From positions 21,237-85,236 of the forward strand of contig CAZHIF010000003.1 in the NCBI GenBank assembly GCA_964532505.1: a stretch of 64,000 nt of DNA, written 5' to 3'. The notes under the pieces are model-generated. The model was not told where the DNA came from, did no database searches, and saw only the letters and a list, made by a program, of their open reading frames with translations. This DNA comes from an uncultured Candidatus Peribacteria bacterium. Its GTDB lineage: Bacteria > Patescibacteriota > Gracilibacteria > CAIRYL01. Of this stretch, positions 2,008 to 43,412 are shown in pieces. The number at the start of each line of letters is the position of its first letter. Within the stretch, counting starts at the first letter, position 1. Both the position numbers and the translations under genes were made by a program.

Positions 2008-2068
2008 AATTAAGAATGCAGAATTAAAGAATCCTTAAACTGCTTCTCATTGAATTTTAACCTCAGGT

Positions 2069-2854: not shown

Positions 2855-2885
2855 TGCAGTACGTGCAAATAGTATAAAAAAGTAA

Positions 2886-3587
2886 TTAAAACGCTTCAAT
2901 AATTACTTGTTCTTTGGGCAATGCAAACGTTTCGAGCAATATTGTTTTCGCTTCTTTAATCATGGCAGGATTTCCACATATGATAATTTCGGTATTGGAA
3001 AGCATTTCTGCCGATAGGTTTGCAATCCATTCGGTGATGCGCCCTGTTTTTCTTGTGCACCCTTCTTCTGGACGAGAAACGTAGAGATCATATTCGAAAT
3101 TTTCGTATTCTTTTGCTAGTTGGTTAAAATACGCATCATAAGAGGCAAATTCTAACGAGCGTACTCCAAAAACCAATTGCACTTTCACAGGAAAGCCTTT
3201 TTCTTTTTCATCGTCTAAAATAGCTTTAAGCGGAGCAATTCCTGTTCCTGTCCCCAAAAGGAGCACTTCTTTTGACGTATCTTTTCTTCCAAAGTGCCCA
3301 AAAGGTCCCATAAATTCCACAGTATCCCCCGCTTGCATTCGGTCAATATATCCTGATCCTTTTCCATTTTCCACTACTTTCACACACAGTTCAAACTGTG
3401 GTAGCCGAGCAGAAGAAGATGCAACAGAATAAGCTCTCATCACCTTCGGCTCTACTTTCACATTTACAAATTGACCTGTGTGAAACGTAAATTCAGGATC
3501 TAATACTTCAAAAACAGTTTTTCTGGTTTCTGTGGCAATGTATTCATTAGAAACGACAACGGCGGAAAAATTTCGAGGAGGAAGCAT
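2886..3587 (-). CDS. FNR-like FAD/NAD(P)-binding oxidoreductase
   Basis: RAYSVAS (RxYS FAD-binding motif), GKGSGY, and an LLLGTGTGIAPL NAD(P)-binding motif. Size is about 230 aa. Confidence 0.75.
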   Translation of the reverse strand: MLPPRNFSAVVVSNEYIATETRKTVFEVLDPEFTFHTGQFVNVKVEPKVMRAYSVASSSARLPQFELCVKVVENGKGSGYIDRMQAGDTVEFMGPFGHFGRKDTSKEVLLLGTGTGIAPLKAILDDEKEKGFPVKVQLVFGVRSLEFASYDAYFNQLAKEYENFEYDLYVSRPEEGCTRKTGRITEWIANLSAEMLSNTEIIICGNPAMIKEAKTILLETFALPKEQVIIEAF

Positions 3588-3734
3588 GGGAGTGAATCGT
3601 TAAAAGCTAAATGTGGAAATCTGAAGAAAATCTTCAAAAAAACAATGTATATTCTACCTATTTTTTATTATCATGATACATTGTTTTTTTTTAAAAAAAA
3701 TTGTAAAATATTAAATGTTTTATATTTTACATTC

Positions 3735-4079
3735 ATGAACACAAATATTTCTTTTCTGCGGCTTCCAAATATTTCAAGTACTATTGTTATTCATTTACGT
3801 GATGGAATAGACATGAATGAATCTGTGAGGAAACAAATTATGGAGGCTGATTTGAATGCTTTTCAAAATATTTTTTTTAGCCTCAAAAATCATAATCAGC
3901 CAACTTCTGAATGTTTTGAAATCATTTTGGAATTGCGTAGAAAGCTGAAAGAGTCTGGGAAAAGCTTTTTTTTGGTAGAGGTTCCGCCATCTCTTATTCC
4001 TGTGATCTCCAATATTGGAATTCCTTCTATAGAGTGTTTTACAAGCTTAGCGGAAGCGGTGATGAGTGTTGGAGAATAG
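3735..4079 (+). CDS. possible STAS-domain (anti-sigma-factor-antagonist-like) protein
   Basis: A weak STAS-like pattern: IVIHLRDGIDMNES...KESGKSFFLVEVPPSLIPVISNIGIPSIECFTSLAEA. An internal ATG at 3735 is preferred over 3645 because the upstream part is low-complexity. The 3' end abuts the topA stop. Confidence 0.3.
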   Translation: MNTNISFLRLPNISSTIVIHLRDGIDMNESVRKQIMEADLNAFQNIFFSLKNHNQPTSECFEIILELRRKLKESGKSFFLVEVPPSLIPVISNIGIPSIECFTSLAEAVMSVGE

Positions 4080-6449
4080 CTATCTATGCTTTTTTAGTGT
4101 TTTTTTTGCAGGAGCTTTTTTGGCGCTTGTTTTTTTTTCCATTGCTTTTGTTGCTTTTTTCACCCCTTTCCCTTTTTTAGCGGGGCGACCATCTTCTTTC
4201 AAAATCTTTTCACACTCTGTAAGCGAAAGAGTGAGAGGGTCTTCTATTGTTTTTGGAATTTTTGCGTTTTTTTCTCCGTCGCTTAAATATGGTCCCCATC
4301 GTCCTTTCAAAATCTGTACATCAGAATTTGGGAAATTCTTCATATATTTTTCTTTCTCGGCGGTGAGCTTTGCTTCATACAATTCAATCGCCTCTTCCAG
4401 TGTAATATCGAGCGGATCTTTTTTCCCAAGGCTTACAAATAGTTTTCCCACTTGAATATATGGACCAAATCGCCCAAAATTTGCTTTGATGTCTTGCCCG
4501 TCTTTCGTCTGCCCCACCAATCTGGGTAGTTTGAAAAGTTCAATCGCCTCTTCCAGTGTAATAGTCTCCCATCGTTGCCCTGGCTTGAGCGAGGCAAACA
4601 CGGGTTTTTCTTCATCGTCTTTTGTTCCGATCTGTGCATATGGACCAAATCGCCCAACCCGTACAGAAAGAGGCTTTCCAGTCTTGGGATCATTCCCTAG
4701 CACTCGTTCTTGAATAGCAGCCGATCTCTCCACATTTTCCATTTTTTCTCCAATAGTTGCTTTAAACGGTGTATAAAAATCTGCAATCATTGCATTCCAT
4801 TTCTTCTTTCCTTCTGCAATTTCATCAAACTCTTCTTCCACATTTTTGGTGAAATCATAATCCACAATTTGAGAAAAATGCAGCACCAAAAAATCATTCA
4901 CCACCGTTCCGATTGCAGTGGGAAGAAGTCGTCCTTTGTCGCTTCCTGTTTTTTCTTTTTTTTCTGATCGCTTGATAGTGGTATTTTTGAGCTCCAGTTG
5001 TATGGAAATGCGCTCTTCTCCTTCACTTTCTCCTTTCATCACATATCCTCGGTCTTGAATGGTGGAAATGGTGGGCGCATAGGTCGAAGGCCGTCCAATC
5101 CCATTATCTTCTAACGCCTTTACCAGCGAAGCTTCTGAGTATCTTGCAGGGGGGCGGGTAAATGTTTCCTTTGCTATAACGCTGTCATATGCAAGCGCAT
5201 CGCCTTTTTTCAAAATTGGAAGCAAAGTGTCTTTGTCTTGATCTCCAAAGACTTTCAAAAATCCATCAAAAGTAACCACCTCTCCCGTTGCCACAAAAAG
5301 TGGTGTTGTCGAGGGAAATGAAAGCATGATCGTGGTTTTGAGCACCTTAGCACTTGCCATTTGCGAAGCGATCGCTCGTTGCCAAATGAGCCGATAGAGC
5401 TTTTTTTGCTGCTCATCGTTTCCTGTAAATTCCACCGAAAAATCTGTTGGGCGAATAGCTTCGTGGGCTTCTTGAGCCCCTTTTGTTTTGGTGGTAAATT
5501 GCCTCACTTCCGAATATTCCGCTCCAAACATTTTGGTGATGTTTTCTTTGGCGTTGGCAATGGCATGCCCAGAAAGATTCACTGAATCTGTACGCATGTA
5601 GGTGATTTTTCCCGCTTCATAGAGCCGTTGTGCCAATTGCATGGTTTGCTTCACCGAAAAACCCAAACGCTGAGAGGCGAGTTGTTGAAGTGTTGATGTG
5701 GTGAAGGGTGGCGATGGATTTTTTGATCCTGGTTTTTGTTCGAGTGATTCCACCGTTGCATTTTCCCCCGAAATACTTTCTAAAAACTGTTTTGCAGCTT
5801 TTTCATTTTCAAATTTTTTCTCTAATTCACTAGAAAATTCTTTTCCATCTGCTGTGAATGTGGCAATGATTTTAAACGAAGAAGTGCTTTCAAATGCTTG
5901 AATTTCTCTCTCTCGCTCCACAATCAGCCGCACAGCAACGCTTTGCACTCGTCCTGCAGAAAGTCCTGTTTGAATTTTTCTCCATAGCACAGGAGACAAC
6001 TCATATCCCACCAATCGGTCGAGCACTCGCCGAGCCTGCTGCGCATCCACCAAATGTTGATCAATTTCTCCGGGATTTGCTACGGCTTTTTGTACGGCGC
6101 TTTTGGTGATTTCCGAAAATACAATTCGTTTTGTGTTTTTGTTTTTCAGCCCCAATGTTTCAAATAAATGCCATGCAATGGCTTCTCCTTCTCGGTCGGG
6201 ATCGGCTGCCAAATAGACAACATCGGATTCCTTTACGGCTTTTTTCAATTCTGCAACCACTTTTCCTTTTCCATCTGAAATTTCGTATTCTGGCTGAAAC
6301 GTTCCGCCTTCAATATCCAGCGCCATTCCACTTTTTGGAAGATCTCGAATGTGTCCAAAGCTAGATTTTACAGTGAAATCCGCCCCAAGGTATTTTTCAA
6401 TAGTTTTAGCTTTCGCAGGAGACTCAACAATAACAAGGTTTTTGGACAT
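4080..6449 (-). CDS. topA: DNA topoisomerase I, with a zinc-finger-less C-terminal repeat region and Lys-rich tail
   Basis: N-terminal Toprim MSKNLVIVESPAKAKTIEKYLG, DPDREGEAIAWH, and active-site region ITYMRTDS. The C-terminus has three GR[FW]GPY repeats, no Cys4 fingers, and a basic tail KKGKGVKKATKAMEKKTSAKKAPAKK. Confidence 0.97.
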   Translation of the reverse strand: MSKNLVIVESPAKAKTIEKYLGADFTVKSSFGHIRDLPKSGMALDIEGGTFQPEYEISDGKGKVVAELKKAVKESDVVYLAADPDREGEAIAWHLFETLGLKNKNTKRIVFSEITKSAVQKAVANPGEIDQHLVDAQQARRVLDRLVGYELSPVLWRKIQTGLSAGRVQSVAVRLIVEREREIQAFESTSSFKIIATFTADGKEFSSELEKKFENEKAAKQFLESISGENATVESLEQKPGSKNPSPPFTTSTLQQLASQRLGFSVKQTMQLAQRLYEAGKITYMRTDSVNLSGHAIANAKENITKMFGAEYSEVRQFTTKTKGAQEAHEAIRPTDFSVEFTGNDEQQKKLYRLIWQRAIASQMASAKVLKTTIMLSFPSTTPLFVATGEVVTFDGFLKVFGDQDKDTLLPILKKGDALAYDSVIAKETFTRPPARYSEASLVKALEDNGIGRPSTYAPTISTIQDRGYVMKGESEGEERISIQLELKNTTIKRSEKKEKTGSDKGRLLPTAIGTVVNDFLVLHFSQIVDYDFTKNVEEEFDEIAEGKKKWNAMIADFYTPFKATIGEKMENVERSAAIQERVLGNDPKTGKPLSVRVGRFGPYAQIGTKDDEEKPVFASLKPGQRWETITLEEAIELFKLPRLVGQTKDGQDIKANFGRFGPYIQVGKLFVSLGKKDPLDITLEEAIELYEAKLTAEKEKYMKNFPNSDVQILKGRWGPYLSDGEKNAKIPKTIEDPLTLSLTECEKILKEDGRPAKKGKGVKKATKAMEKKTSAKKAPAKKTLKKHR
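4383..4563. repeat. exact 25-nt direct repeat (4383-4407 and 4539-4563) inside the topA C-terminal domain repeats
   Basis: ttcaatcgcctcttccagtgtaata occurs twice, 156 nt apart. It encodes the ITLEEAIEL segment of successive C-terminal repeats. A second near-repeat, tatggaccaaatcgcccaa, lies near 4460 and 4639 and encodes GRFGPY. Confidence 0.9.
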
Positions 6450-6623
6450 AAGAAAAAAATGAATTATGCAGAAAAAGGAACAAAAAAATCGTATAAAAAT
6501 TCAGGATTAAAGTCCAGCTCTTGGGATTTTTATTCAATTTTATCAAAAGAAATGGAAGCTATTTGAAATACGAAAGGCTCTTTGAACCGAGAAAAACAAC
6601 CACCTTGAAGCGGCAAAGGATGC

Positions 6624-6680
6624 AATACATTTTGTGCAATTGACCAAGGAACCAATTGCTAAAGTTTTGAGAAAAAAGAT
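6624..6680. repeat. dispersed intergenic element, copy A (exact 21-mer shared with 53837-53857)
   Basis: aatacattttgtgcaattgac is identical at both sites. About 27 further nt are roughly 60 percent identical, followed by an A-run. It contains a GCAATTG/CAATTGC hairpin. Confidence 0.8.
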
Positions 6681-6865
6681 TGATAAAAAAAGAGTTTATT
6701 ATGTTAACAATATTGTTATTTTACAATATTGTTAGGGTGTTTTTGGAAAATTCTTTGGTTCAGCATGCAAAATCAACTCGATAGGGAAGTTTTTGCTTTG
6801 CACAATAAAAAACGCGCCTTTAGGTGTGTCTTTTATCATACCCTCAATAATGCATCATTATTTTT

Positions 6866-7708
6866 TTAAAACGGCAAATCCCCAGGCTTGATATTTGATT
6901 CATATTGAATGCTTGGGATTTCTGGGAGGTTGTCTGCTGCCATGGAAGAACTTGCAGCTGCAATCACTACTGTTGACCCCACGGGGGCGCTCATTTCCAC
7001 TGGGCTTTCAGATCCGAGCAATGCGCACTTTTCCACAATTACTTCGGTGGTATATTTTTTTTCTCCTTCTGGCGTATCCCAACTTCTGGTTTGCACTCGT
7101 CCGCTGATGTAAACCTTCCGTCCTTTTTTTATCATAGTTTCTCCCTCGCTTGCCAGTGCACCCCACAATACCAAGTTGTGATATTCAGTTTCTTCTTTTA
7201 GCTCATCACTGGCCTTGTCTTTCCATTTTCGGTTTGATGCCACAGAAGTGGTTCCCACCGTGCTTCCATTTGGTGTTTGACGCACTTCTAGATCTTTGGT
7301 CAGGTTTCCAATGATTTCCACATTATTCATTCCAGTTGCAAAAATATTACTTTGCACGGCAGGGTATCCTCCGTTTTGTGGAGTGAGAAGAAGCATGTCT
7401 TCCGCGATTACTTTTGTTTTATATTTTTTCTTTCCCGGCTCTGGTTCCCAGTGTTCTGTTTTGAGGCGTCCTTCCACATAAATTTGAGATCCTGCTTGAG
7501 TATATTGCGCAATGTTTTCTGCTTGTTTCCCCCAAAAAGTAATACTGTGGAAAGAGGTGCTGTCAAATGACCCACCTCCCATTTCTTTTTCCACTTTTGA
7601 AATAACTCGTAAATTCACGTCGCACACACTCATTCCGCTAGGCAAATTTCGCAGTTCTACGGTTTCAGTTACATATCCAATAAGTTTTACTCTGTTAAGT
7701 GCGTACAT
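6866..7708 (-). CDS. ssb: single-stranded DNA-binding protein with two tandem OB folds
   Basis: There are two SSB-type OB domains: NRVKLIGYVTETVELRNLPSG...FWGKQAEN...YVEGRLKTEHWE, and NNVEIIGNLTKDLEVRQTPNG...LWGALASE...YISGRVQTRSWD. The acidic/hydrophobic C-terminal tip is ...PGDLPF. Confidence 0.9.
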   Translation of the reverse strand: MYALNRVKLIGYVTETVELRNLPSGMSVCDVNLRVISKVEKEMGGGSFDSTSFHSITFWGKQAENIAQYTQAGSQIYVEGRLKTEHWEPEPGKKKYKTKVIAEDMLLLTPQNGGYPAVQSNIFATGMNNVEIIGNLTKDLEVRQTPNGSTVGTTSVASNRKWKDKASDELKEETEYHNLVLWGALASEGETMIKKGRKVYISGRVQTRSWDTPEGEKKYTTEVIVEKCALLGSESPVEMSAPVGSTVVIAAASSSMAADNLPEIPSIQYESNIKPGDLPF

Positions 7709-7876
7709 AAAAAGGTGATTAAAAAGCTACTTGCAAGAGTATCAAATGCAAAGTAAAGAAAGAATTGTTTTTTATAAAAGCAAGTTTTATAGTCGTAATT
7801 TTTTAAAATTCTCCATTTTCAATTCTTCATTTTTTTTGCATACTGAAAACACAAATTTAATTCTTCATTCATTGGT

Positions 7877-8887
7877 ATGATTTCAAAAATTCAAATCCTT
7901 AAAGATCAGGCTGTTTCTGCCATTTCAGTGGCTCAAAGCTCGGCAGATCTCGAACAAATTGAACAAGAGTATTTTGGACGAAAATCAGGAAAGATCAATG
8001 ATATTCTAAAATCGCTTGCAAGCCTTTCTCCTGAAGAAAAAAAAGAGGTGGGGTCAGCAGCTAATGAGGCAAAAAAAGAAGTGGAAGCATTCCTTGCTCA
8101 AAAGCTTTTTGCATTGGAAGAAGAAAAAATGGGGAAATTGGTCGAAACACAGTGGATTGATGTGACTGCTCCTTTAGCCCCAAAGCCAAAAACTGCCGCC
8201 AATCGGCATCCTCTTTCGCAGTTTATGCTCGAATGCGAAGAGGTGTTTGGAAAGCTCGGGTTTGAGGTGGCAGAAGGGTTTGAGATTGAAGATGAGGATC
8301 ATAACTTTAATTTTCTCAATATCCCTGCCGATCATCCTGCGCGTGAAATGCAGGACACATTTTGGCTTAAAAACGAAATGGAAGGACATGTGCTTCGTAC
8401 TCAAACTTCGAATATGCAAATTCGGTTTATGGAAGCGAACACTCCACCATTTCGAATTATCGCTCCAGGAAAGGTATTTAGAAAAGACTCTGATGCGACA
8501 CATTCTCCCATGTTTCATCAAATAGAATGCTTGATGATTGACAAAAACATTTCTCTCGCGAATTTGCGATTTGTGCTTCTTTCTGCACTTCGAGAGATTA
8601 TTGACCCTGATGTAAAGCTTCGATTTCGACTTTCATTTTTTCCTTTTGTGGAACCGGGTCTTGAGGTGGATGCGCTTTTGAAAGTAGGTGGAGAGCAAAA
8701 ATGGTTGGAAATTGGAGGTGCTGGAATGGTACATCCGAATGTGCTTCGAAGCTGTCATGTGGATCCAAATGAATGGAATGGGTTTGCATTTGGCTTTGGG
8801 ATTGAGCGAATGGTAATGATTAAGTATGGAATCAAAGACCTTCGGTTGTTTTTTGAGAATGATTTGCGGTTTTTGAATCAGTTATAA
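7877..8887 (+). CDS. pheS: phenylalanine--tRNA ligase alpha subunit
   Basis: Class II motifs HPAREMQDTFW, LRTQTS, FRIIAPGKVFRKD and GFAFGFGIERMVM. Length is 336 aa. Confidence 0.95.
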   Translation: MISKIQILKDQAVSAISVAQSSADLEQIEQEYFGRKSGKINDILKSLASLSPEEKKEVGSAANEAKKEVEAFLAQKLFALEEEKMGKLVETQWIDVTAPLAPKPKTAANRHPLSQFMLECEEVFGKLGFEVAEGFEIEDEDHNFNFLNIPADHPAREMQDTFWLKNEMEGHVLRTQTSNMQIRFMEANTPPFRIIAPGKVFRKDSDATHSPMFHQIECLMIDKNISLANLRFVLLSALREIIDPDVKLRFRLSFFPFVEPGLEVDALLKVGGEQKWLEIGGAGMVHPNVLRSCHVDPNEWNGFAFGFGIERMVMIKYGIKDLRLFFENDLRFLNQL

Positions 8888-9076
8888 GAAAGGTGAAATT
8901 TATTCTGTTTTGATGCCATTTGAGAAAATAAAAACAATCCTTCATTATCCTTTTTTTCTCAAAATTTTTGCAATTGGCGGCTTTGCCATCTCAAAATATT
9001 GATTCACTTAACACAGTTCTAATTTATTTTATTTAGGTTTTTTCTTGAAAATCTCCTGAATTGCCAAAATTTTTTT

Positions 9077-9826
9077 CTACCGCAACACCTCTTCCAACAC
9101 CAAAGAAGTTTCTGTTTTCTCATCTCGATATTTCACAATAATTGCACAATTGGCAGAGAGTCCTAGCAATGCCCCCCATTCATTTGAAACGGGGCGTGAT
9201 CCCGGAATTACCACTGCCCCAGCAGGAACTTCTCCTTTGAGGATCGTTTGATTAACCATGTCATAAATCGGTACCGCAGCAGAGAGATGTACTCCCGGCG
9301 CCAACACCGCTCGAGATCGCACCACTACTCCTTCGGTGACGATCACCCCTGCTCCCAAAAACACATCATCTTCTATAATAACTGGCCTGTTTCCAATAGG
9401 TTCCAATACTCCTCCAATCTGCACAGCAGTGGAAAGATGCACTCTTTTTCCGATCTGCGCACAAGACCCCACCAGCACATGCGAATCTACCATGGTTCCT
9501 TCGTCGATATATGCTCCGATGTTGATATACGAAGGAGGCATAATGATTACACCTTTTGAAATATATGCTCCAGATCGCACAGAAGATCCACCCGGAACCA
9601 TTCGCACTCCATCTTCAAGAGAGAATTTTCTTGGAGTTAGAAGGTTTTTATCGGGAAACCCCGAATAGGCAGGATTTTTATACCCCATGTCGATCATGGT
9701 AGAATCTTTGAACACTTGTAAAATGCCCTGTTTTACTTCCATATTTGCCACCCATTCATCTCCTTTTTTTTCTGCAGCGCGCAGTGATCCAGATTCTAAT
9801 GCCCGAAGAAACGAAATGCTATCCAT
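9077..9826 (-). CDS. dapD: 2,3,4,5-tetrahydropyridine-2,6-dicarboxylate N-succinyltransferase (hexapeptide-repeat)
   Basis: Collinear with remembered E. coli DapD: LESGSLRAAEK, MPSYINIGAYIDEGTMVDS..VGSCAQIGKRVHLS..VQIGGVLEP....PVIIEDD.F.GA. Confidence 0.9.
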   Translation of the reverse strand: MDSISFLRALESGSLRAAEKKGDEWVANMEVKQGILQVFKDSTMIDMGYKNPAYSGFPDKNLLTPRKFSLEDGVRMVPGGSSVRSGAYISKGVIIMPPSYINIGAYIDEGTMVDSHVLVGSCAQIGKRVHLSTAVQIGGVLEPIGNRPVIIEDDVFLGAGVIVTEGVVVRSRAVLAPGVHLSAAVPIYDMVNQTILKGEVPAGAVVIPGSRPVSNEWGALLGLSANCAIIVKYRDEKTETSLVLEEVLR

Positions 9827-10151
9827 AGAGTTGTAAAAATAAGTGCTTTAAAAATGGTGGAGTGGGTGAGGTCTGAAATCGTACTCGTCCAGATTATTAA
9901 GCTACCACCCCTTATCACCTTTTGTATAATACAAAAAAAGATCGTTTTCCAACAGTTATTTTTTGTGAAACCCAGATAATTACCTCCGATACCACTATCG
10001 CATCATTTTGATATTGTTTTTGTAAAAGCTTTTTATACTGTGCAATCTTCAAAAGATAATTAATAATATCTTTAATTGAATTGCAATATTGCTTTCTTTC
10101 AAAAAACACCATTTTCTGGTATTATGATCTGAAAATTTTCAAATATCATAT

Positions 10152-11579
10152 ATGCACACGAATACTTATTCGCACCGCTTGGCAGAGCAAATTCCTCACA
10201 AAACCCCGAAGGGAGTGCTGGAGAAAAAGAAAAAATATTGGAAGCCTCTTTCTTCGCAAAAATATTTGCAGAAGAAATTTCGACAAATGGCATTTCTGTT
10301 TTCTTCCATAGCTCTTTTTATTGGGCTTTCTAGCCCCTCTTTTGCATTTGCAGCCCCTAACTTTGAGATTTCCCAGTGTGATGAGACTTCATGCTCTGTG
10401 GTGAATAGTGTTTTAATATCTCCCAATGCCAATCAAACCATCACCATTCGAATCGGTATCAAAAATCCAGATCAAAATGCTATTTATTCAGTGCAAAGCT
10501 GGTTGAAATATAATCCCCAAGTGTGGGAAGTGGTAGAATTATCTGATGAACATTCTGATTTTGAACTGGCAGCACCTGGTGAATTTAAAGCCAAGGCTGA
10601 TACTGGTGAAATTCGTATCGGTCGAGCAGTGGCAGGAACCGCCATCACTTCGCCAAATGCGATTGTGGCAGATATTACTCTGAAATCAAAAAAAGACCCT
10701 ACTTTTTCCACCATTTCATGGATTGATTTTATCAGTAATGATATTGGAAAAACGGCAATTGTGGGACTCAATGGGAATGCACCTATCAACTTACTAAGCA
10801 CGAAGCCTAAAGATATTACGTTTAATAGAGCTACTACTTCAATTCCTTCAAAAAATACTTCTTCCAATAATATTTCATCTGGTTCGACAAAAAATGTGTC
10901 GGGAAATACCTCTGGAAATTATGGAGCGCAAAACAACAATGCTTCTTCCGCTGTAGTGCAAAACCAAGGAAAAACCGATACACAGCTGAATAATCCGAGT
11001 ATGAATTTTGCGGATATTCCACGTCCAAATGGGCTCAGAAGCCGAACGCATAAAGATGGAAGTGTGGATCATCTGTGGCAAATGGGAACCGATCCGAAAA
11101 TAACAGGATATTATTTGTATTATAGTACTTCATCTGGAGTATATATGCACCGACGAGATGTTGGGAAGACTAATACGATAACCTTTCCTTCGGGGTTTTT
11201 TGAAAAAGGAAAGCGAGTGTATTTTGCCGTGCAGGCATACACTTCCGCACAAGCGGTATCCGATTTTTCTGATGAAACCTATCTTGTGGTGGGAACTGTG
11301 GGATCTGAAAGCCATCCTTTTTTTGAACAGATTTTTCCAAATGCTGTGAGTGTAGGAGTGAGTGGTGCAAATGCTTACTATGGAAAGCCTGGGCAAACAA
11401 CGTCTCTCGCTCAGGCGGATTTGACAGGGTCGTCGCAAGCTACTGCAAACAAATCAATTCAAGCAAAGCCAAAAACCAATACACAGTCTGGAATTGAGAT
11501 TCCTCCATATGTGTTGCTGATTCTTGGAGGAATTGCTTTGCTTTTTTCCAGAAGGTTTTTGATAATGAACAAAAGATAA
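10152..11579 (+). CDS. membrane-anchored surface protein with a cohesin-like domain, Ser/Asn-rich linker and FN3-like domain
   Basis: Signal peptide MAFLFSSIALFIGLSSPSFAFA, so the true start may be the ATG at 10287. A cohesin-like beta pattern spans about 10359-10797. A low-complexity S/N tract spans about 10840-10990. An FN3-like segment (GYYLYYSTS...YFAVQAYT) spans about 11020-11295. The C-terminal TM plus basic anchor is YVLLILGGIALLFSRRF. Confidence 0.6.
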   Translation: MHTNTYSHRLAEQIPHKTPKGVLEKKKKYWKPLSSQKYLQKKFRQMAFLFSSIALFIGLSSPSFAFAAPNFEISQCDETSCSVVNSVLISPNANQTITIRIGIKNPDQNAIYSVQSWLKYNPQVWEVVELSDEHSDFELAAPGEFKAKADTGEIRIGRAVAGTAITSPNAIVADITLKSKKDPTFSTISWIDFISNDIGKTAIVGLNGNAPINLLSTKPKDITFNRATTSIPSKNTSSNNISSGSTKNVSGNTSGNYGAQNNNASSAVVQNQGKTDTQLNNPSMNFADIPRPNGLRSRTHKDGSVDHLWQMGTDPKITGYYLYYSTSSGVYMHRRDVGKTNTITFPSGFFEKGKRVYFAVQAYTSAQAVSDFSDETYLVVGTVGSESHPFFEQIFPNAVSVGVSGANAYYGKPGQTTSLAQADLTGSSQATANKSIQAKPKTNTQSGIEIPPYVLLILGGIALLFSRRFLIMNKR

Positions 11580-11585
11580 GATGCT

Positions 11586-14500
11586 ATGAAGATTTTTTTA
11601 CTATCGCATTTTTCGGGTGACGAATACACGAACTCTTTTGTGGAACACAGAAGGGTGAGGTTTGCTGATATTGAACAGAATGAAGGAAAAAATCTACAAA
11701 ATAGAGAAAAATCTCAAGACCCAATAACTATTGAAGAAGAAGATAAAAAAAATGAAATTCGGGATGGAATAAAAAAAGCATTGCAAGAGCCAAATGAGGA
11801 AACGAAAAAAAAGAATATTAAAGAACTCAAAGATAAATACGGACAAAGGGTGGAAAAAATTTTAGAAGAAGATAAAGAAGCAGGATATTGGATTACAGAA
11901 GATGTAAAGACGCACGATTCGGTGATGAATATTTTGGAGGAAAAAGAAAAAACAGAAGAAACAAGTTTTTTGGAATTTGTAAAAGATGCGTACATAAAAG
12001 ATTTTTCCGAAATTCCAAAAGAAAAGCTTTCTGCATTTTTAGCAATTCCATTGCCCAAAGCATTACAATTGCTCGAAAAAAATCCAGAATACAAAAAAAA
12101 ATATTTATCATTTCTTAAGACACTTTCTTCCGAAAATAAAGAAGTACAAAAATGGGTTTTGAGCTATACAGAAAAATTTACAGGAGAAGAAACGGCATAC
12201 GTAAAATTACCCGTAGAAGCCAAAGAACATTTTATTCGGTTGCATCAAGAAATGCTTGGGAAAAAAGGGAATAAGCTCATAGAAGCAATAGAAAAACACA
12301 CCAAAGATGATGTGCAATCTATCGCCGAAATTACCAAAGCCAATGCATCATCAGAAGTGCAGACGGAAGATGAGTTGTTGCAAAAAATACGCCAGCATTT
12401 CAACGATCCTGTGCTGTTGAAAACCCTTAAAGGTATATCTCTTAGAAATAACACAGAAAATGAAAAATCTCTTCAGTCTGATATGATCGATGAAGTGGTG
12501 AAATATGTGTTGCAAAAACAAAAAGAAAACACAGAATATACTGAAGCAGGAATAAAAGCCCTGCAAAGAGATTACGAGGCTTTGCATCAGATTATATTTG
12601 AAACTGTTGGCACGGTGGCATCTTCTAAAAAAATAGAACACCTGCGAATACAATTAAAAGAAACACAAGAGAATATTCAAAAGCTACAAGAAGGTTTACA
12701 GAATGGATTTTCTAAAACTGGATTTTTACCAAACGATAGCGACGATTATAAAGATGCAAAAAAAATAGATACGTTTTTGCAATCGTTTGACAGTCTGTCA
12801 AAAAAATCATTTGGAGAAACCATGATAAACATGCGTCGAGCGTATGAAGCGAGCATTGTTGAGATCAATGCAGAAAAAAAACAATACAGGAGGACAAAAA
12901 ATATTTCCTCATGTTTACAAAATTTGCAAGCAAAGGGTATTAGCGTTGATCCTCAAAACCTGCGTGCACATTTCGAAAATCAAAAACAGGGAGATATTCC
13001 ATTAGAATGGATTACATCACTTTTTGCATTATTGCCACCAGAGCGCAGAAATATTGATCTCAAAATATACGCTCCATATATCAAAAATCCACTGCAGCAT
13101 ACCGAAAAAATAGACCCCAAAATGCTTGCTGGTATTTTGAATGCAGAGCCTTCAGCAGGGCTTACTTATCTCTATTCAAAAAATAACAACATTATTGCCA
13201 CAGAGGCAATCGTTGATCATTTAGAGCAATCAACCAGCTCTTTGGTGAATCAATTGCAGTATGAACTGCAAGGGAAAAACAGTAAAGAGGTGATAATGGA
13301 AGCACTTGAAAGGTTTTCTAACCCAGAATTTTTTGAGAATATCTATAAAAAACTTTCACTTATTTTTAATGAGATAGAAAATACTATCAAGACTAATCTC
13401 GAAAAAAACCCAACGCTTAAGGCAAATATGCTATGGGAATTTGGACAAAAAAAAACAAAGATACCAATGCTTCCTCTTGATAGGATAGATTGGAAACAAG
13501 GAGCTTCTCAGTTTTTATTAGAAATGCAGGATTTTTTGAAAAGTGAAAATCCCAAAAACGCAGAAGATATTATTCAGATAATGAACCAGTCGGCTGATGT
13601 TTTGGAGGACAGAATGCTCATGCCGTGGCAAAAAAAACTATTCGAAGTGAAAAAATATTCACAAGATCCAGAAACTTGGCAGAAAAAGTTGGATGCTGAT
13701 GTCTATGCAGAAAAAAATCCATCTTCTGCATACAATTCATTACACGCAGAATCTCAAAGTGTTGAAATACACGAAAAACACTTCAAAGCATTGCAAGAAG
13801 CTTTTTTAATCGCTTCGAGAGGAGAGGGTTTTTCTTTAAATGGAACACTTGCGCTTCAAAATCTTTTAAATCAAAAAACAAAAACAGGGACGCCTCTTAT
13901 CATACCTCGAAACTTCAACAATTCTGAGGAAAAAGTGATATTAATGAACCAAGAAAGTGCATCATACAATAGAACAACTGGGCAAATTGAAATAAGTCAT
14001 GATTTATACAATGCTCTCAAAAATTTCAAAAACAATGAAGCTCCTTATAATCTTACAGAAAAAGGATTAGGTGCATTGTGGCACGAAGTTGGGCACTTGC
14101 TTGTGGATAGTATTTCGCATGCAAACCAAATATCAGACCAAAAAAATATTTCAGAACTAGTGCCTTCTTTTGCCGATATGGTGAAGGGGAAAATGGGTGC
14201 AGAAAAATATGCACAGCTTATTGCTAAAGCAACACCTCTCATCACAGGGGATCCCGCATTTGCCGAAGAGGAATTATGTATTATGCTGTGGGAATTTCTG
14301 CAAATTTCTCCCGAAAAACGAGCTACAACACAATATGCAGAAAATTCTTTGGGGAGAATTGTACAAGAAATATTTAGAAATGTTGGAGAAAAAAGTATTC
14401 GTGATTTTTTTATGACCAAAGTGCAGCAATTGATCATGGAAAATGCGAAAACAATGCCTCAATATTTTACATACCCAAAAAAAGAACAAAGGCTCTACAA

Positions 14501-16859
14501 TCAAAACACTGGAGAAATACTCAACACATCATCTCAAGAAGAAGGCAATGCCACAAAAAATGCTTCACCCGAAATAAAAATGGGGAAAGCAGATCGGGAT
14601 AAAAAATTAGAAGAGTATAATAATAAAGTAGCCGATCTCAAAAAAAAGATAACCGATATTGAAAAAATTATAAAAGAAACACAAAATTTGCCCAACAATA
14701 TGGTTGAAAAAATACAAAAAACCATAAAAGATTGTAATGCCATTATGGCGTATGGAAGGCAAAAAATTGCGACAGAAAACCTCACAGCAGAACAAGCCAC
14801 AAGCATTATTATACAGCTAAGCAATCGACAGCCAATCGATGAAAATGGCGATAAAAAAGTGGAAAAAAAGGATAGCACTTCAGTGGAAGGAGTTTTGAAT
14901 GGAATCTTGAAAGCGATGAGTGATTTTCCTATAGACGAAAGAAGTGGCGTACAAAAATTTTGGAACAATGTAGAATTTTTGGCACTAGATGATCTGAAAG
15001 CACCTTGGAAAACACTAAAAGATTATATCAAACAACGATGGAGGGATCAGCAATCACTGAGAACCAATAAGGTATTTTCGAGTATTGTTCCAAAGTGGGG
15101 ATGGCTTACGGGGCTTGAAAATGAATTTAGTAATGCTGAGGAGGGTAGTCGTTCAAAAATTGTGAAAAAATATGCTGATGGAATCGCCAATGAAGAAAAT
15201 AGCTATATTTCAACAATCTTCCTTCCCAACGTGACAAATCCAGAAGCGTTGCTAGCGGCTGTGAAGCACTTGTGTAAAGGAGGGAATATGAAATGGGTAG
15301 AATCAGCAGGGAAAGCGGTGGCACAAAAACTTCAAGAATTTGGAAGCGGGGTAAAGTTTTATAATAGCGATTTTAAAGACGAGCTCGTAATGCGATTAAA
15401 ATTTAAAAAAGCATTTTATCGAGTATACGGAAAAGAAACGCTATACGATAAATTGTATACCGAAAATAAGGCCGCAAATGAAGGATCTGTGGAAAAAGGA
15501 ATAGATCAAGTAAGTAAACTTACCTATTCTGGAAGTGATCAGATTAGAGATTGGATACGGCAGAAATGTATATATAAAAAGGAGCCAAAAGAGTTTTATG
15601 TGAAAGGGCAAATATTGGAAGGGTTTATTATTGGAAATTATCTTGATGGAAATTTTGACAATCCAAACGAAGTAATTTTTTATATGATTATGGGAATTGC
15701 TCAAGGGATTATTGGGGCTGACGCTTGGGGAAGAGCTTGGGGGAAGGTGGGGTCAAATCCTCTATTTAATATTCTTAATGGATTTTCTGGAGACAAAGAG
15801 AAAATGATTGAATGGCAAAAAGAAATATTGTGGGATGAGCAAATGCAAGATTTCAGAAAACCATGGGATCCTCCGCCTCCTTGGTTTGATGCGTGGGTGG
15901 ATAATACATTGGTGGCCAATACTGTTACTGCTACTCGAGTGATGAAAACAGGGGCTCAAACGGTGAATTATGATCATGATAATACATATTTGATACTTTC
16001 TCATTCGTATGCAGAAGGAGCGGATCGTGTTTTGCAAAGTGGGTATGGAGGGCAAGAACAGCCCACTCGATTTAACAATATTCCAAGTGGAACGATGCGG
16101 GTTTTTACCAGCTTTGCTTTGAATAAAAAATCTAACGAAAAGGCTCCTTCTGAGGATTTTTTGAGACACATGGGGTATTACTCTACTATTTATGGATTAG
16201 GAGTTCTTGATAATAAAGAACCCGATAATCCAAACATTCGACGATATACATATGGAACAGAAGTGCTGCGGCAGAATCCTCGAGGAACAGGGAGGGGATA
16301 TAATTCAGATATGAAGATTAATGATTATTTTGTAGCACAAAATGAAATGTTTTTGAGCATGGCAAAAATTCCGAGTCAAGAACAGGGATTTGCAGCATTT
16401 TTGAACCTTCTCTATTCTCCAGAATCTCGAATGCTCACGAGTGAACAATTTGGAGAGGAACTCAAGAGAATATATGAATCATCTGCAACTTTTAGAGAAT
16501 CATTAGAGGGAATGAAAACTGATTTTAGAGGAAGGAATTCATATGTGTTCACGAGTATGGTGCCTGCAGTGTTTAAATATTATTTAACACCCAAAGGAGA
16601 TACAGAGCGTAAGCTGTACTCAAAAAAATCATCAGAATTAAACTATGCAGTTATGATGCAAACGATTGATGATATTTCATCGGGGAGGTACAATCCTGCT
16701 TGGGCAAATCAAAAAGACATGAGGGTTGTACATCCTCATTCTACGGCTGGATATCCCCCTCAAAGAGTTCCAGATGTATTTATGAAAAAAGAAAAAACAG
16801 CGTTGAGTTGGAACAAGGACGGATCTATGAATAAAAAAGATTTTACAAAAGCTGCATAA
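11586..16859 (+). CDS. giant hypothetical protein (1757 aa) with a single HEXXH (HEVGH) motif
   Basis: An uninterrupted 5.3-kb ORF starting 6 nt after the preceding gene. The N-terminal half is Lys/Glu-rich and coiled-coil-like. HEVGH lies at 14082-14096. I saw no signal peptide, TM segment or P-loop. Confidence 0.85.
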   Translation: MKIFLLSHFSGDEYTNSFVEHRRVRFADIEQNEGKNLQNREKSQDPITIEEEDKKNEIRDGIKKALQEPNEETKKKNIKELKDKYGQRVEKILEEDKEAGYWITEDVKTHDSVMNILEEKEKTEETSFLEFVKDAYIKDFSEIPKEKLSAFLAIPLPKALQLLEKNPEYKKKYLSFLKTLSSENKEVQKWVLSYTEKFTGEETAYVKLPVEAKEHFIRLHQEMLGKKGNKLIEAIEKHTKDDVQSIAEITKANASSEVQTEDELLQKIRQHFNDPVLLKTLKGISLRNNTENEKSLQSDMIDEVVKYVLQKQKENTEYTEAGIKALQRDYEALHQIIFETVGTVASSKKIEHLRIQLKETQENIQKLQEGLQNGFSKTGFLPNDSDDYKDAKKIDTFLQSFDSLSKKSFGETMINMRRAYEASIVEINAEKKQYRRTKNISSCLQNLQAKGISVDPQNLRAHFENQKQGDIPLEWITSLFALLPPERRNIDLKIYAPYIKNPLQHTEKIDPKMLAGILNAEPSAGLTYLYSKNNNIIATEAIVDHLEQSTSSLVNQLQYELQGKNSKEVIMEALERFSNPEFFENIYKKLSLIFNEIENTIKTNLEKNPTLKANMLWEFGQKKTKIPMLPLDRIDWKQGASQFLLEMQDFLKSENPKNAEDIIQIMNQSADVLEDRMLMPWQKKLFEVKKYSQDPETWQKKLDADVYAEKNPSSAYNSLHAESQSVEIHEKHFKALQEAFLIASRGEGFSLNGTLALQNLLNQKTKTGTPLIIPRNFNNSEEKVILMNQESASYNRTTGQIEISHDLYNALKNFKNNEAPYNLTEKGLGALWHEVGHLLVDSISHANQISDQKNISELVPSFADMVKGKMGAEKYAQLIAKATPLITGDPAFAEEELCIMLWEFLQISPEKRATTQYAENSLGRIVQEIFRNVGEKSIRDFFMTKVQQLIMENAKTMPQYFTYPKKEQRLYNQNTGEILNTSSQEEGNATKNASPEIKMGKADRDKKLEEYNNKVADLKKKITDIEKIIKETQNLPNNMVEKIQKTIKDCNAIMAYGRQKIATENLTAEQATSIIIQLSNRQPIDENGDKKVEKKDSTSVEGVLNGILKAMSDFPIDERSGVQKFWNNVEFLALDDLKAPWKTLKDYIKQRWRDQQSLRTNKVFSSIVPKWGWLTGLENEFSNAEEGSRSKIVKKYADGIANEENSYISTIFLPNVTNPEALLAAVKHLCKGGNMKWVESAGKAVAQKLQEFGSGVKFYNSDFKDELVMRLKFKKAFYRVYGKETLYDKLYTENKAANEGSVEKGIDQVSKLTYSGSDQIRDWIRQKCIYKKEPKEFYVKGQILEGFIIGNYLDGNFDNPNEVIFYMIMGIAQGIIGADAWGRAWGKVGSNPLFNILNGFSGDKEKMIEWQKEILWDEQMQDFRKPWDPPPPWFDAWVDNTLVANTVTATRVMKTGAQTVNYDHDNTYLILSHSYAEGADRVLQSGYGGQEQPTRFNNIPSGTMRVFTSFALNKKSNEKAPSEDFLRHMGYYSTIYGLGVLDNKEPDNPNIRRYTYGTEVLRQNPRGTGRGYNSDMKINDYFVAQNEMFLSMAKIPSQEQGFAAFLNLLYSPESRMLTSEQFGEELKRIYESSATFRESLEGMKTDFRGRNSYVFTSMVPAVFKYYLTPKGDTERKLYSKKSSELNYAVMMQTIDDISSGRYNPAWANQKDMRVVHPHSTAGYPPQRVPDVFMKKEKTALSWNKDGSMNKKDFTKAA

Positions 16860-19844: not shown

Positions 19845-21437
19845 TTAGTACTTCTCTAATGCATCGATTAAGTCCAAAAGTGAATTTTTCTGCGTTTCCC
19901 AATTTTTATAAGAATTACTCTTTTTAAAATTCAAAGACTGATTACTTTCTTGCCCGAACAACGGATTAAAAACTTTTTCCAAATCCCAATTTTTAATTTC
20001 ATTTCGTAATATTTCAATGTCTGCCACTGGTATAAAATTTTTCGCTTTAATTGTAGATTGAAATTTTTTTACCTTCTTTTCCCATATTTTCATAGTCTTG
20101 TCGAGTTCTTCTGCAAGAAGCTTTTCTTTAGGTTTTTCATTATCCTCCGGATTGTCGGGATTTAAAAAATGTGAAGATGTAATATTGCTTGGACCACTAT
20201 GATAAAAATGTGGGTTTAATGCATTCTGGCCATGTTCTGGAGGAGTGCCTTTTCCTCTTTGTTTTTCAATAAACTGTCTTTCTAAAAAATCGTTGTTGAT
20301 AATGCGATATGCCAAAGGAATATATTCTGCAATTTCTTGTTCGTTAGGAATAAACTGCTTTAATGCTAAAAATTTTTTTGCGTTTTTTTGCAGTTGTAGA
20401 ATATTTTGCTGGGTGGCCTTTAAATGATCAGAATTGATTAATTTTAAATTTTTTCTAAATTTTTTAAATGATTGCTTCGCTATTCTTTCTGCATCTTCTG
20501 CAATCACTTCTAATATTTTTTGTTTATCTTTAGAAGAAACAGAAGATGATTTTTTTAAAAGATTCAATAGCATTTTTTCCTGCTGTTTTTTTGATTTTTT
20601 CTTTTTCTCTTTATCATTTGTTTTATTGGGGTCAAACTCATCAAAATATGTCAACCAATAGGCAGGATTTGCAGGTTCTTTCTTATGCGCCTCTTCTATT
20701 TGTCGAAAACTTTTTCCTTGACTATGCGCAACTGCTACATCGACTAGAGTATTAGAATTTTCTGGAGACGAAGAATGGGGAGCTCCCGAAGATGAAACTT
20801 CATTCACAGAATTTTCACCATTTGCATTTATTTTTTCATTTCGCCTGACTCCATCTTGCGCAGCATTAAGATTACTTTTCCTTTTTCTGAATTTTTGGAT
20901 TACATTTTCTATTCTTATTTTTTCACCATCCTCAGCCCTTTTTCCCAAACTGGTAAGATTTGAAATAATCGTGGCACACAGGTTTGTATCATTGCAATTT
21001 TCCACAGAAAGGTCTTCTAGTGCTGGAATAACTGAATCGACTAATTTTTGCTTCCAAGCAGCTGCCAATGTTTTTTTTGTTGACTCATCAAAATAATATT
21101 CATTCTCACCAAAAAGATCATTTGCCAGGGTTGCAAAGGTAGCAAGAGATTTAAAAACGGAATAAAAAGAAGAATTATCCATGGAAAAATCTTCGATCTC
21201 GGATTTTCTTTTCTCTGCAGAATTTTCTTGCAACTCTTCAACACCTGCTTGATCGGACGTATTAAGGGGAGTGGGAGTTTTATGATCGGCATTATGAGTA
21301 TTTTCTCTAAAGTTCAAAAACTCAAGAAGCCTAGTAGCATATGTTCTGGATTGCGAAACAATGCTCAAAATTGCAGGCTTAATATTGAGACGCGTATTGC
21401 TCGGTTGGATCGCCTCTGGTGTGTTATGCTTTTTCAT
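19845..21437 (-). CDS. hypothetical Lys/Glu/Asn-rich protein (530 aa), last gene of the ORFan operon
   Basis: A long ORF starting 15 nt after the upstream gene. No TM segment and no recognisable motif. Contains a KKKKSKKQQEK basic tract. Confidence 0.75.
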   Translation of the reverse strand: MKKHNTPEAIQPSNTRLNIKPAILSIVSQSRTYATRLLEFLNFRENTHNADHKTPTPLNTSDQAGVEELQENSAEKRKSEIEDFSMDNSSFYSVFKSLATFATLANDLFGENEYYFDESTKKTLAAAWKQKLVDSVIPALEDLSVENCNDTNLCATIISNLTSLGKRAEDGEKIRIENVIQKFRKRKSNLNAAQDGVRRNEKINANGENSVNEVSSSGAPHSSSPENSNTLVDVAVAHSQGKSFRQIEEAHKKEPANPAYWLTYFDEFDPNKTNDKEKKKKSKKQQEKMLLNLLKKSSSVSSKDKQKILEVIAEDAERIAKQSFKKFRKNLKLINSDHLKATQQNILQLQKNAKKFLALKQFIPNEQEIAEYIPLAYRIINNDFLERQFIEKQRGKGTPPEHGQNALNPHFYHSGPSNITSSHFLNPDNPEDNEKPKEKLLAEELDKTMKIWEKKVKKFQSTIKAKNFIPVADIEILRNEIKNWDLEKVFNPLFGQESNQSLNFKKSNSYKNWETQKNSLLDLIDALEKY

Positions 21438-21452
21438 TATAAAAAAATTATC

Positions 21453-22589
21453 TTATGCCATCACTGCATTTGGCAGTAATGATTTTCTGTTCTGTTTTCT
21501 TCTTTCTTTCATCTCACTTGCCTTTTCAAATAGTGATTTTGCGAGTCTTCCTTCCTTTATTTCTTGTGCAACACTTGTAAATGCTTTGTTGTATTTATCA
21601 GCAATATTTTTTCCCAAAAATAATCGAACGATGGATGAAGTTGGTCGTAAAATAAAAGCAGTTGTTGTATCTATTACATTATCTTTTGTTTCTTTGATAA
21701 TGGAAAAAAGATTTTTTAAAACTCCTTGGCTGTCTTTCACTTGCAAATTCCCATATTCTTTAATTTTTTTGTTTCGAGTAAGAAATCCAAGACCTTGCAT
21801 GGTTTTTCCAAAAGCTCTTCGGCCAAATTGACCCACTCCAGATAGCATAGTGTCGAGCTGAGCTCGAAAGCCATAATAGAGGACGGAGATTGCAGGTCCC
21901 ACAGAAATATCCCATAATACAGGCTTTTCTCCAAAAGGATTATCTTTATCTTTCCACACAGTGGAAACCCCTTTTCCTCCCACATGCTTCACGCCTTCCC
22001 AAGTTTTTTTCAGACCCCAAGAAACTCCTGCTTGTCCGAATTCGTTTCCTTCTTTTCCCCTCCATGTATATTTAAGCCCTTTCCATCCATGGTGCGCTGC
22101 GTCTCGAATAACTGGTGCGGCCAATGCTGCAGCTCCTCCTGCTATCACCATTTCTCCAACCCCTGCACCTGCTAACGCAGCTGTTCCTGCACCCAATGCT
22201 GCAGGAACTCCAATGGTTGAAGTTGCCAATGGCATACTTGCACCAACGGCGGCGCCGACACCTCCACCTAATGCATATCCAGCAGCTGCGTAAGGGACAA
22301 TGCTCCCTACTACACCAATTGCTGCCAATGTTTTTTCCCCAACACCACTTGCTTGTTTAAATTGTTCAACTCTTTTTTGTATTCCTGCTCCTGTGAGAAG
22401 TTTCATTACACTTGATTGATACTTAGCTCTTTGAGGATTTACACCTGACTGAGGTGATTGTGCTGCAGCTACAGATGCAGCGGGAGCAGTGGCAGCCTGA
22501 GGAGAACCTGCAGGAGCAGGTGGTGTTTTGGAAGGCGTGTTAGGAGGTGTATTGTATGCAAGCCGACGCTCAAGAAACATTCCATTCAT
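21453..22589 (-). CDS. hypothetical membrane protein (378 aa) with a Pro/Ala-rich N-terminus and Gly/Ala-rich hydrophobic core
   Basis: NTPPNTPSKTPPAPAGSPQAATAPAAS is followed by about 80 aa of G/A-rich hydrophobic sequence (nt about 22095-22330), then a basic soluble C-terminus. Confidence 0.75.
   Translation of the reverse strand: MNGMFLERRLAYNTPPNTPSKTPPAPAGSPQAATAPAASVAAAQSPQSGVNPQRAKYQSSVMKLLTGAGIQKRVEQFKQASGVGEKTLAAIGVVGSIVPYAAAGYALGGGVGAAVGASMPLATSTIGVPAALGAGTAALAGAGVGEMVIAGGAAALAAPVIRDAAHHGWKGLKYTWRGKEGNEFGQAGVSWGLKKTWEGVKHVGGKGVSTVWKDKDNPFGEKPVLWDISVGPAISVLYYGFRAQLDTMLSGVGQFGRRAFGKTMQGLGFLTRNKKIKEYGNLQVKDSQGVLKNLFSIIKETKDNVIDTTTAFILRPTSSIVRLFLGKNIADKYNKAFTSVAQEIKEGRLAKSLFEKASEMKERRKQNRKSLLPNAVMA

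Positions 22590-40424: not shown

Positions 40425-43412
<2,988 letters not shown>

Follow-up and report, generated by a model that had tools for sequence, protein, structure and literature searches.

A conserved gene pair in Peregrinibacteria encoding a cohesin-FN3 surface protein and a giant protein with a zincin-like core

The subject of this work is a pair of adjacent genes in a 64-kb stretch of DNA (hereafter the window, to whose positions all coordinates refer unless another locus is named) from an uncultured groundwater member of the bacterial group Peregrinibacteria, recovered from a subsurface metagenome. The window is chromosomal, has a GC content of ∼38%, and carries housekeeping genes such as topA, ssb, pheS, trpS and hflX, a 23S-5S rRNA pair, and others. 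Gene 1 encodes a surface protein with a cohesin module and a fibronectin type III (FN3) module, and gene 2 encodes a far larger soluble protein, referred to here as the giant. The two open reading frames (ORFs) are in the same frame, with the TAA stop codon of gene 1 and the 6 nt GATGCT between them (Table 1). A first-pass annotation, made from the sequence alone, had singled out this tight pair, and its coordinates and 6-nt spacing proved correct. We find the pair to be real, conserved, and previously uncharacterized. Promoter-like sites were not enriched over shuffled sequence, so the one listed upstream of gene 1 is only a candidate.

Table 1. Features of the cohesin-FN3/giant locus, with positions in the window
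Feature	Position (nt)	Strand	Basis or remark
Promoter-like candidate: TTCAAA, 16-nt spacer, TG-TATTAT	10098..10125	+	consensus scan; ∼27 nt before first ATG
Gene 1: 475-residue surface protein (signal peptide, cohesin, linker, FN3, conserved motif, anchor)	10152..11579	+
Predicted signal-peptide h/c region, residues 46-67, MAFLFSSIALFIGLSSPSFAFA, ending AFA↓A	10287..10352	+	hydropathy
Cohesin module, residues 69-227	10356..10832	+	Pfam, AlphaFold2, Foldseek
Ser/Asn-rich linker, residues 228-285	10833..11006	+	predicted disordered, pLDDT ∼25-28
FN3 module (by fold and family alignment), residues 290-380	11019..11291	+	seven-strand beta domain, pLDDT 82-91
Membrane-proximal motif GSESHPFFEQIFP, most conserved stretch of the gene 1 family	11301..11339	+	alignment
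C-terminal anchor: N-T-Q-S-G (residues 443-447), hydrophobic residues 450-465, tail SRRFLIMNKR, stop	11478..11579	+
Gene 2: 1757-residue soluble protein of a sparse Peregrinibacteria-wide family	11586..16859	+
N-terminal peptide SFVEHRRVRFAD, residues 17-28	11634..11669	+	family consensus F-F-R-E-x-R-E/L-x-F-F-A
Hypervariable Lys/Glu/Leu-rich region, residues ∼30-740	11673..13805	+	composition
Putative zincin-like metallopeptidase core, residues ∼760-955	13863..14450	+	motif, model, weak profile
HEVGH (HExxH of the giant), residues 833-837	14082-14096	+
Glu895-Glu896	14268-14273	+	∼60 residues after HExxH
Single dockerin/EF-hand-like loop DENGDKKVEKKD, residues 1085-1096, probably fortuitous	14838..14873	+	regular expression for Ca loops
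Conserved all-alpha C-terminal domain, residues ∼1125-1705	14958..16700	+	alignments, model

The product of gene 1 is built like a module for docking or adhesion at the cell surface. It has 27 homologues, at 32-50% identity, in metagenome-assembled genomes assigned to the Peregrinibacteria or Gracilibacteria, and the alignment of these with the window protein (28 sequences) was the input to an AlphaFold2 model. The first-pass annotation had read the protein as a signal peptide, a cohesin-like domain, a Ser/Asn-rich linker, an FN3-like domain and a C-terminal transmembrane (TM) segment with an RRF anchor, and each of these elements was recovered. At the N-terminus, a basic n-region of 45 residues (10152-10286) precedes the hydrophobic stretch, AlphaFold2 places a helix at residues 35-59, and an xFA signal-peptidase-like site before the mature part is kept across the family alignment. 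Judged by these features, the protein is exported by a Sec-type route, with a predicted signal-peptide cleavage.

The cohesin assignment comes from both profile and fold. Pfam Cohesin (PF00963) matches residues 92-190 with an E value of 3e-8 (34.4 bits, against a gathering cut-off of 24.1), and the model shows a nine-strand jelly-roll like that of solved cohesins, with a predicted local distance difference test score (pLDDT) of 84-96. Foldseek retrieves the cohesin structures 2w1n, 2vn6, 1qzn and 2vo8, all with probability 1.00, and with TMt values of 0.55-0.68 for the single-module structures. A Cys76/Cys81 pair within the module is conserved in the family. The linker that follows differs in both length and sequence between homologues. 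For the FN3 module, Pfam fn3 (PF00041) gives no match at E ≤ 0.1 on the window protein itself; aligned, more distant homologues do match it over the same region (E 3e-7 and 6e-7, above the cut-off), the family profile matches FN3 sequences in the PDB at E 0.015, and Foldseek aligns the module with 2dlh (TMt 0.64), with the FN3 half of 2w1n, and with many FN3 tandem structures. The FN3 call thus rests on the predicted fold and the family alignment. In the PDB, the gene 1 model is matched best by 2w1n (E 5e-9), a double module of cohesin and FN3 from GH84C of Clostridium perfringens, with cellulosomal cohesins and many FN3 structures next in order.

Two further elements lie between the FN3 module and the C-terminus. 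Within GSESHPFFEQIFP, residues S387, H388, P389 and F390 are invariant in 28 of 28 sequences, as is G447 of the N-x-Q-S-G pentapeptide, which is followed by a 16-residue hydrophobic stretch and a basic tail. On sequence grounds, this C-terminus may be a tripartite sorting signal of the sortase type, but a simple TM anchor explains it equally well; the pentapeptide is not LPXTG. Sortase A has been reported in Peribacteria (PMC4736985), and no sortase was found among the scanned ORFs of the window.

The first-pass annotation called the giant an ORFan. A word-indexed homologue search supports that label, in that the giant matches only itself; the corresponding profile search likewise returned the query alone, probably swamped by low-complexity Lys/Glu words. 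The label did not survive an exhaustive HMMER search with the C-terminal 977 residues against 1.84 billion representative proteins, which found 22 relatives, almost all of 1200-1900 residues, and the first reading had also missed a zincin signature. Moreover, ORFs downstream of the cohesin homologues are 20-25% identical to the giant and can be aligned with each other end to end. As far as these comparisons go, the giant belongs to a sparse, fast-evolving, lineage-restricted family and is no true ORFan. Pfam gives no match to the giant at E ≤ 0.1.

Family alignments divide the giant into an N-terminal peptide, ∼700 hypervariable residues, a segment with HExxH, and a C-terminal domain of ∼580 residues. 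Among complete family members, about two-thirds have a recognizable N-terminal peptide, and several are without it. The hypervariable region is 27-54% identical between L003 and L005, two of the loci with a homologous pair. A twin-arginine translocation (Tat) signal built on the 'HRRVRF' of the giant was considered and rejected, as the family does not conserve the RR and the sequence after it has no hydrophobic core. An AlphaFold2 model, built with the relatives from the representative-protein search, covers residues 740-1757 (1018 residues) with a mean pLDDT of 74.6. Foldseek comparison of this model with the PDB and BFVD gave no significant fold, only generic helical-repeat or tape-measure matches with TM-scores of 0.14 or less, and the family profile found nothing significant among PDB sequences.

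Within the modeled part, the zincin-like core shows three beta-strands, a helix carrying HExxH (model residues 86-107) and a helix carrying the downstream Glu (151-166), with pLDDT 83-93 over model residues 120-170. HExxH was present in all six of the paired giants first compared; in an alignment of 10 paired giants, the H, E and H and the EE are invariant, and across 20 sequences E834, H837 and E896 are invariant and H833 is kept in at least 90%. When the ∼190-residue segment was scanned alone, 6 of 10 members matched PF14247 (DUF4344, 'putative metallopeptidase'), with a best E value of 2.5e-5; all of these matches fall below the gathering score, and the window giant itself reaches E 0.13 (12.4 bits against a cut-off of 29.6). 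The core therefore appears, from motif and model, to have the gluzincin-type layout HExxH...E, and zinc binding and peptidase activity are putative. In this respect it resembles DUF4344 proteins and other gluzincins, including the minigluzincin proabylysin (4jiu), in which the HExxH helix likewise comes after a small beta-sheet and the Glu is carried by a further helix downstream. The proabylysin match is weak (E 0.59), and no peptidase is among the top 50 Foldseek matches of the 1018-residue model. Unlike those proteins, the giant has its core in the middle of a protein of 1600-1800 residues, between unrelated flanking domains, and the model as a whole has no significant fold match. Antibacterial effectors of the Xanthomonad type IV secretion system (T4SS) include DUF4344 among their predicted toxic domains (PMC6536674).

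The C-terminal domain is a well-conserved part of the giant, being 71-75% identical between L003 and L005, versus 54% for the whole protein. It is modeled with pLDDT mostly 80-94 and contains the motifs WxNTxFLS, GxIDW and FYxSD. R1451, D1463 and H1464 are invariant, and D1465 is kept in at least 90% of sequences; the DHD lies at nt 15972-15980. After it comes a variable tail, in which a [VI]PxxF motif is loosely conserved; the tail matched no known secretion signal.

In cellulosome-type systems, as the first-pass reading pointed out, cohesins dock partner proteins at the cell surface. That reading had found no convincing dockerin in the giant, and we agree. The loop DENGDKKVEKKD is the sole such loop in a six-frame translation of the window; it sits in a low-confidence insert unique to the window giant, is absent from the 31 relatives, and is probably fortuitous. 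With no Pfam match and only this one isolated loop in a window-specific insert, a dockerin in the giant was rejected, and since the giant is without a dockerin, we do not class the pair as a cellulosome-type system. There are no carbohydrate-active enzymes or scaffoldins in the window or in the neighborhoods of 11 related loci.

To place the pair in context, related loci were gathered from contigs encoding cohesin homologues and by scans of genome and metagenome collections. A giant homologue lies directly downstream of the cohesin-FN3 gene, on the same strand, in all 11 distinct pair-type loci, which belong to related Peregrinibacteria/Gracilibacteria genomes, with intergenic gaps of -49 to +126 nt and varied relative frames. 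The cohesin proteins of these loci are 37-50% identical to that of the window. The flanks differ, in at least five contexts: the window pair lies between genes for a hexapeptide transferase and tryptophanyl-tRNA synthetase, and other pairs between M23-SLH and RuvA, aldehyde dehydrogenase and ParE, S15 and RecA, epimerase and DnaB, and others. Synteny in related genomes had been set beforehand as a test of the pair; the two genes co-occur at every one of these loci, and nothing that had been named in advance as refuting the pair was observed. That the pair is retained in 11 of 11 loci, although the flanks are rearranged, points to functional coupling. By these comparisons, the two genes form a conserved co-directional operon, always adjacent in the clade with this cohesin subfamily.

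The rate of divergence is also informative. When L003 is compared with L005, identity is 72-92% for housekeeping proteins, 58% for the cohesin-FN3 protein, 54% for the giant, and 27% for the N-terminal part of the giant. The cohesin-FN3 protein and the giant are thus both fast-evolving, at similar rates, a pattern typical of envelope, surface or host-interaction proteins. Near the pair in the same two loci are large Pfam-less proteins without signal peptides (L003, 2531-5647 (+), 1038 residues; L005, 1986-5309 (+), 1107 residues), which are ∼30% identical to each other although the neighboring housekeeping proteins are 72-92% identical. No sequence outside the giant family matches the giant's N-terminal peptide better than the N-terminus of the L003 protein, LFGEKRVIF.

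In the loci of the remotest cohesin-FN3 homologues (32-33% identity; L006/L017, L016 and L023), the next gene is an ORF of 227-294 residues, not a giant. These small ORFs are co-directional and Pfam-less (L016, 7364-8248 (+); L006, 11137-11985 (+); L023, 11302-11985 (+)). The L016 ORF ends in KSGPE, a hydrophobic stretch and RRKK, much as the cohesin-FN3 proteins end, which hints at a shared sorting signal. On the contig common to L006 and L017, a gene at 1766-9289 (+) encodes a 2434-residue surface protein of DUF11/Big repeats with a C-terminal Dockerin_1 domain (residues 2354-2403, E 8e-6, above the cut-off), and the sister cohesin-FN3 gene lies two genes downstream (10001-11140 (+)). In the public record, the gene for the 2434-residue protein is called from too late a start, and beginning at an upstream GTG gives the protein a normal signal peptide. 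This locus is likely a canonical cohesin-dockerin pair in the Gracilibacteria, and because its dockerin-bearing giant lies beside a cohesin-FN3 gene, canonical docking of giants on cohesins probably exists in the lineage.

Several known systems offer comparisons. The non-cellulosomal cohesin-FN3 modules of C. perfringens are protein-protein docking units that recruit dockerin-bearing toxins and enzymes. Gene 1 is of this non-cellulosomal cohesin-FN3 kind, here stand-alone in a candidate phyla radiation (CPR, or Patescibacteria) bacterium. It shares the two-module arrangement with GH84C/NagJ (2w1n, 2vo8), and neither is tied to cellulose degradation; here, however, the module is a separate protein anchored to membrane or wall rather than part of an enzyme, identity is only ∼13%, and no dockerin partner can be identified, either in the giant next to it or in the rest of the window. 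Anchoring scaffoldins of cellulosomes (the SdbA/OlpB type of C. thermocellum; 4fl4, 3kcp, 3ul4) also display a cohesin at the surface by means of a C-terminal anchor and are similar by Foldseek. Gene 1 differs from them in having a single cohesin and no SLH domain, and in belonging to a small-genome CPR bacterium rather than a cellulolytic Firmicute. As for the giant, the large clostridial toxins TcdA and TcdB, Tc toxin A subunits and T4SS effectors are without signal peptides and are released by non-Sec routes. They share with it the lack of a signal peptide, an internal enzymatic domain (putative in the giant), very large size and a proposed role outside the cell, but there is no sequence similarity and no significant structural similarity (TcdA1, E 0.3, TM-score 0.05).

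We tentatively favor the view that the pair is a surface or host-contact operon whose giant leaves the cell by a non-Sec route. Gene 1 encodes the surface-displayed cohesin-FN3 protein, and the giant would be a zinc metallopeptidase-type effector exported without a Sec signal, either through a Patescibacterial T4SS or by lysis or holin-type release, as in the large clostridial toxins. Once outside, it would cooperate with the cohesin-FN3 protein in one of two ways: the cohesin might retain the giant by a non-dockerin contact, as in an anchor-cargo model, or the cohesin-FN3 protein might make contact with another cell or the cell wall, with the giant being delivered there. True physical docking of the giant on the cohesin is possible but unsupported, and we think it unlikely; cooperation of the two proteins without stable docking is, by our estimate, just as unlikely. 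With respect to export, T4SSs occur widely among the Patescibacteria, and an adhesin is yet to be identified for them (PMC12102498). Genes for T4SS pilins of the VirB2/TrbC type lie 13 kb downstream of the pair (29867-30262 (+) and 30259-30729 (+)); PF18895 matches the first with E 2.6e-8, above the cut-off, and the second weakly (E 0.005). No holin/lysis cassette or full T4SS was identified beside the pair. The pilin genes are preceded by an ORF of 167 residues with an N-terminal hydrophobic segment (29354-29857 (+)).

A number of observations weigh against export of the giant and against its dependence on the cohesin. That it is without a signal peptide or TM segment, as claimed at first pass, agrees with hydropathy: no 19-residue window exceeds a Kyte-Doolittle value of 1.5, the N-terminus holds no hydrophobic window, and extension of the ORF upstream is impossible. 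Nor was any secretion signal recognized in the giant. Since a true extracellular giant in a related genome, that of L006, has a signal peptide, the absence of one here is real. None of the 32 members of the giant family carries a dockerin, and Pfam Dockerin_1 gives no match to the giant itself. The composition of the giant (Lys/Glu-rich, with 5 Cys in 1757 residues) is like that of many cytoplasmic coiled-coil proteins. No VirB4 or VirD4 was found in the window, and the only sequencing runs that match the locus are DNA runs of a subsurface metagenome. Finally, distant relatives of the giant occur without an adjacent cohesin gene, among housekeeping genes: they adjoin the genes for valyl-tRNA synthetase, chorismate synthase, dUTPase and ftsZ/ftsA, and they include members from high-GC genomes (0.57-0.61) and one on a 1.37-Mb contig. 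It follows from these unpaired giants that the function of the giant is independent of an adjacent cohesin and that the family is older and broader than its cohesin association; it looks vertically inherited rather than accessory. Several of them have the N-terminal peptide as well, making this peptide unlikely to be a cohesin-binding element.

These observations lend weight to the main rival explanation, which we regard as a real possibility if a somewhat doubtful one: the giant may be a cytoplasmic, lineage-specific, zincin-containing scaffold or enzyme with a core role, merely co-transcribed with gene 1, while the two products never meet and the ligand of the cohesin is either a dockerin-bearing protein with its gene elsewhere or not a protein at all. 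It would account for the lack of signal peptide, TM segment and dockerin across 32 family members where the extracellular giants of the lineage do have signal peptides, for the helical Lys/Glu-rich composition with few Cys, and for the housekeeping surroundings of the unpaired relatives, which across low- to high-GC genomes suggest a vertical core gene; moreover, a canonical dockerin cargo is known beside a sister cohesin-FN3 gene (L006). What it leaves unexplained is the strict adjacency in 11 of 11 loci, which argues for functional coupling, and a rate of evolution far above that of cytoplasmic housekeeping proteins and similar to that of the surface partner. Nor was any dockerin-bearing ORF, as a partner for the cohesin, seen in the window or in the ∼20-kb neighborhoods of the pair-type loci. 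Even if cytoplasmic, the giant would be a lineage-wide uncharacterized protein kept in a reduced genome, and likely important for Peregrinibacteria biology.

Could the two genes instead have no functional relation at all, and be neighbors only by historical accident, in a region that is poor in genes and rearranges slowly? Several loci do have S15 upstream and RecA downstream in common (L003 and L005, with L010, L011 and L015 as probable further cases), and the giant family occurs without a cohesin gene in other lineages. However, the pair is intact in order, strand and short gaps in five or more flanking contexts, and neutral synteny is normally lost at the divergence seen here, with cohesins 37-50% and giants 20-25% identical. 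The sister cohesin subfamily, too, keeps a co-directional downstream partner of its own (227-294 residues), and we consider an accident quite improbable. It is more improbable by far that a single surface-anchored giant underlies both ORFs, whether broken in two by a sequencing error or read through under an alternative code. Such a split is brought to mind by the shared frame, the 6-nt gap and relatives labeled Gracilibacteria, some of which read UGA as Gly. But code 25 leaves TAA, the stop found here, unchanged, and TGA terminates real genes in the window. Homologous pairs, with gaps of -49 to +126 nt, lie in different frames, which excludes a read-through fusion, and in relatives the anchor and basic tail close gene 1 while the N-terminal peptide opens gene 2. 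Code-25 read-through or fusion was rejected on these grounds.

A host-contact operon, if that is what the pair is, would be of interest beyond this locus. The CPR makes up a large share of bacterial diversity, and its members are thought to be host-attached; to our knowledge, almost none of their contact molecules are known outside the Saccharibacteria. The locus offers a clean, conserved and tractable pair, in which a small cohesin-FN3 ectodomain is combined with a giant that has a testable HExxH site. The giant represents a family of ∼1700 residues without a Pfam model, and its C-terminal domain matches no solved or viral predicted structure significantly. With this pair, it can also be tested whether a cohesin is able to dock partners without a dockerin. 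In a more speculative and, in our judgment, improbable version, a CPR cohesin would have taken on the new task of holding, by a new interface, a giant zincin effector that has no dockerin, with non-Sec export (e.g. by a T4SS), as a Peregrinibacteria-specific device for host attack or attachment. If so, the all-alpha C-terminal domain of the giant would be a new enzymatic fold or a new pore- or contact-forming fold.

Some candidates were tried and set aside. A phage, plasmid or defense origin of the locus was ruled out, as tblastn gave no match in phage or plasmid collections and PADLOC gave none; a PHROG search of the locus gave one trivial match only. An 'FxExR' export motif shared between the giant's N-terminal peptide and other proteins was also considered. 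The top scores outside the giant family, with a position-specific scoring matrix for the peptide, belong to the window ORFs 24676-29226 and 21453-22589 and to the 1038-residue ORF of L003, and the number of such matches is that expected by chance, which makes the motif a lead at most. The family hidden Markov model matches none of the window's other large Pfam-less ORFs (the 1516-residue one and others), and their paralogy with the giant was therefore ruled out.

The two window ORFs just named belong to a cluster of four co-directional Pfam-less ORFs on the minus strand (19845-21437, 21453-22589, 22666-24657 and 24676-29226, encoding 530, 378, 663 and 1516 residues). The cluster is divergent from the T4SS pilin genes, and its products have no signal peptides. 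Two of them start MFLERRLAY and HWFYEARRAWE, resembling the giant's N-terminal peptide, within chance expectation.

Other parts of the window gave minor observations. Two VanW-domain proteins (30726-31985 (-) and 33483-34385 (-)) and an 832-residue protein with Amidase_2 and SpoIID domains (51288-53786 (-)) have cell-wall remodeling functions, and the first VanW protein and the 832-residue protein have hydrophobic, signal-like N-termini. Three further Pfam-less ORFs (46260-48953 (-), 897 residues; 43917-44876 (-), 319 residues; 44881-45777 (-), 298 residues) adjoin a local GC dip to 0.32 (44-46 kb), and the N-terminus of the 319-residue product is signal-peptide-like. The single-stranded DNA-binding protein (SSB; 6866-7708 (-), 280 residues) has two matched SSB/OB stretches, suggesting a duplicated OB-fold in place of the usual single-domain form. 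The 23S rRNA (40424-43416 (+)) and 5S rRNA (43585-43700 (+)) genes have no 16S gene upstream, where the gene for ribosomal protein S1 ends at 39732, and the rRNA operon therefore appears unlinked.

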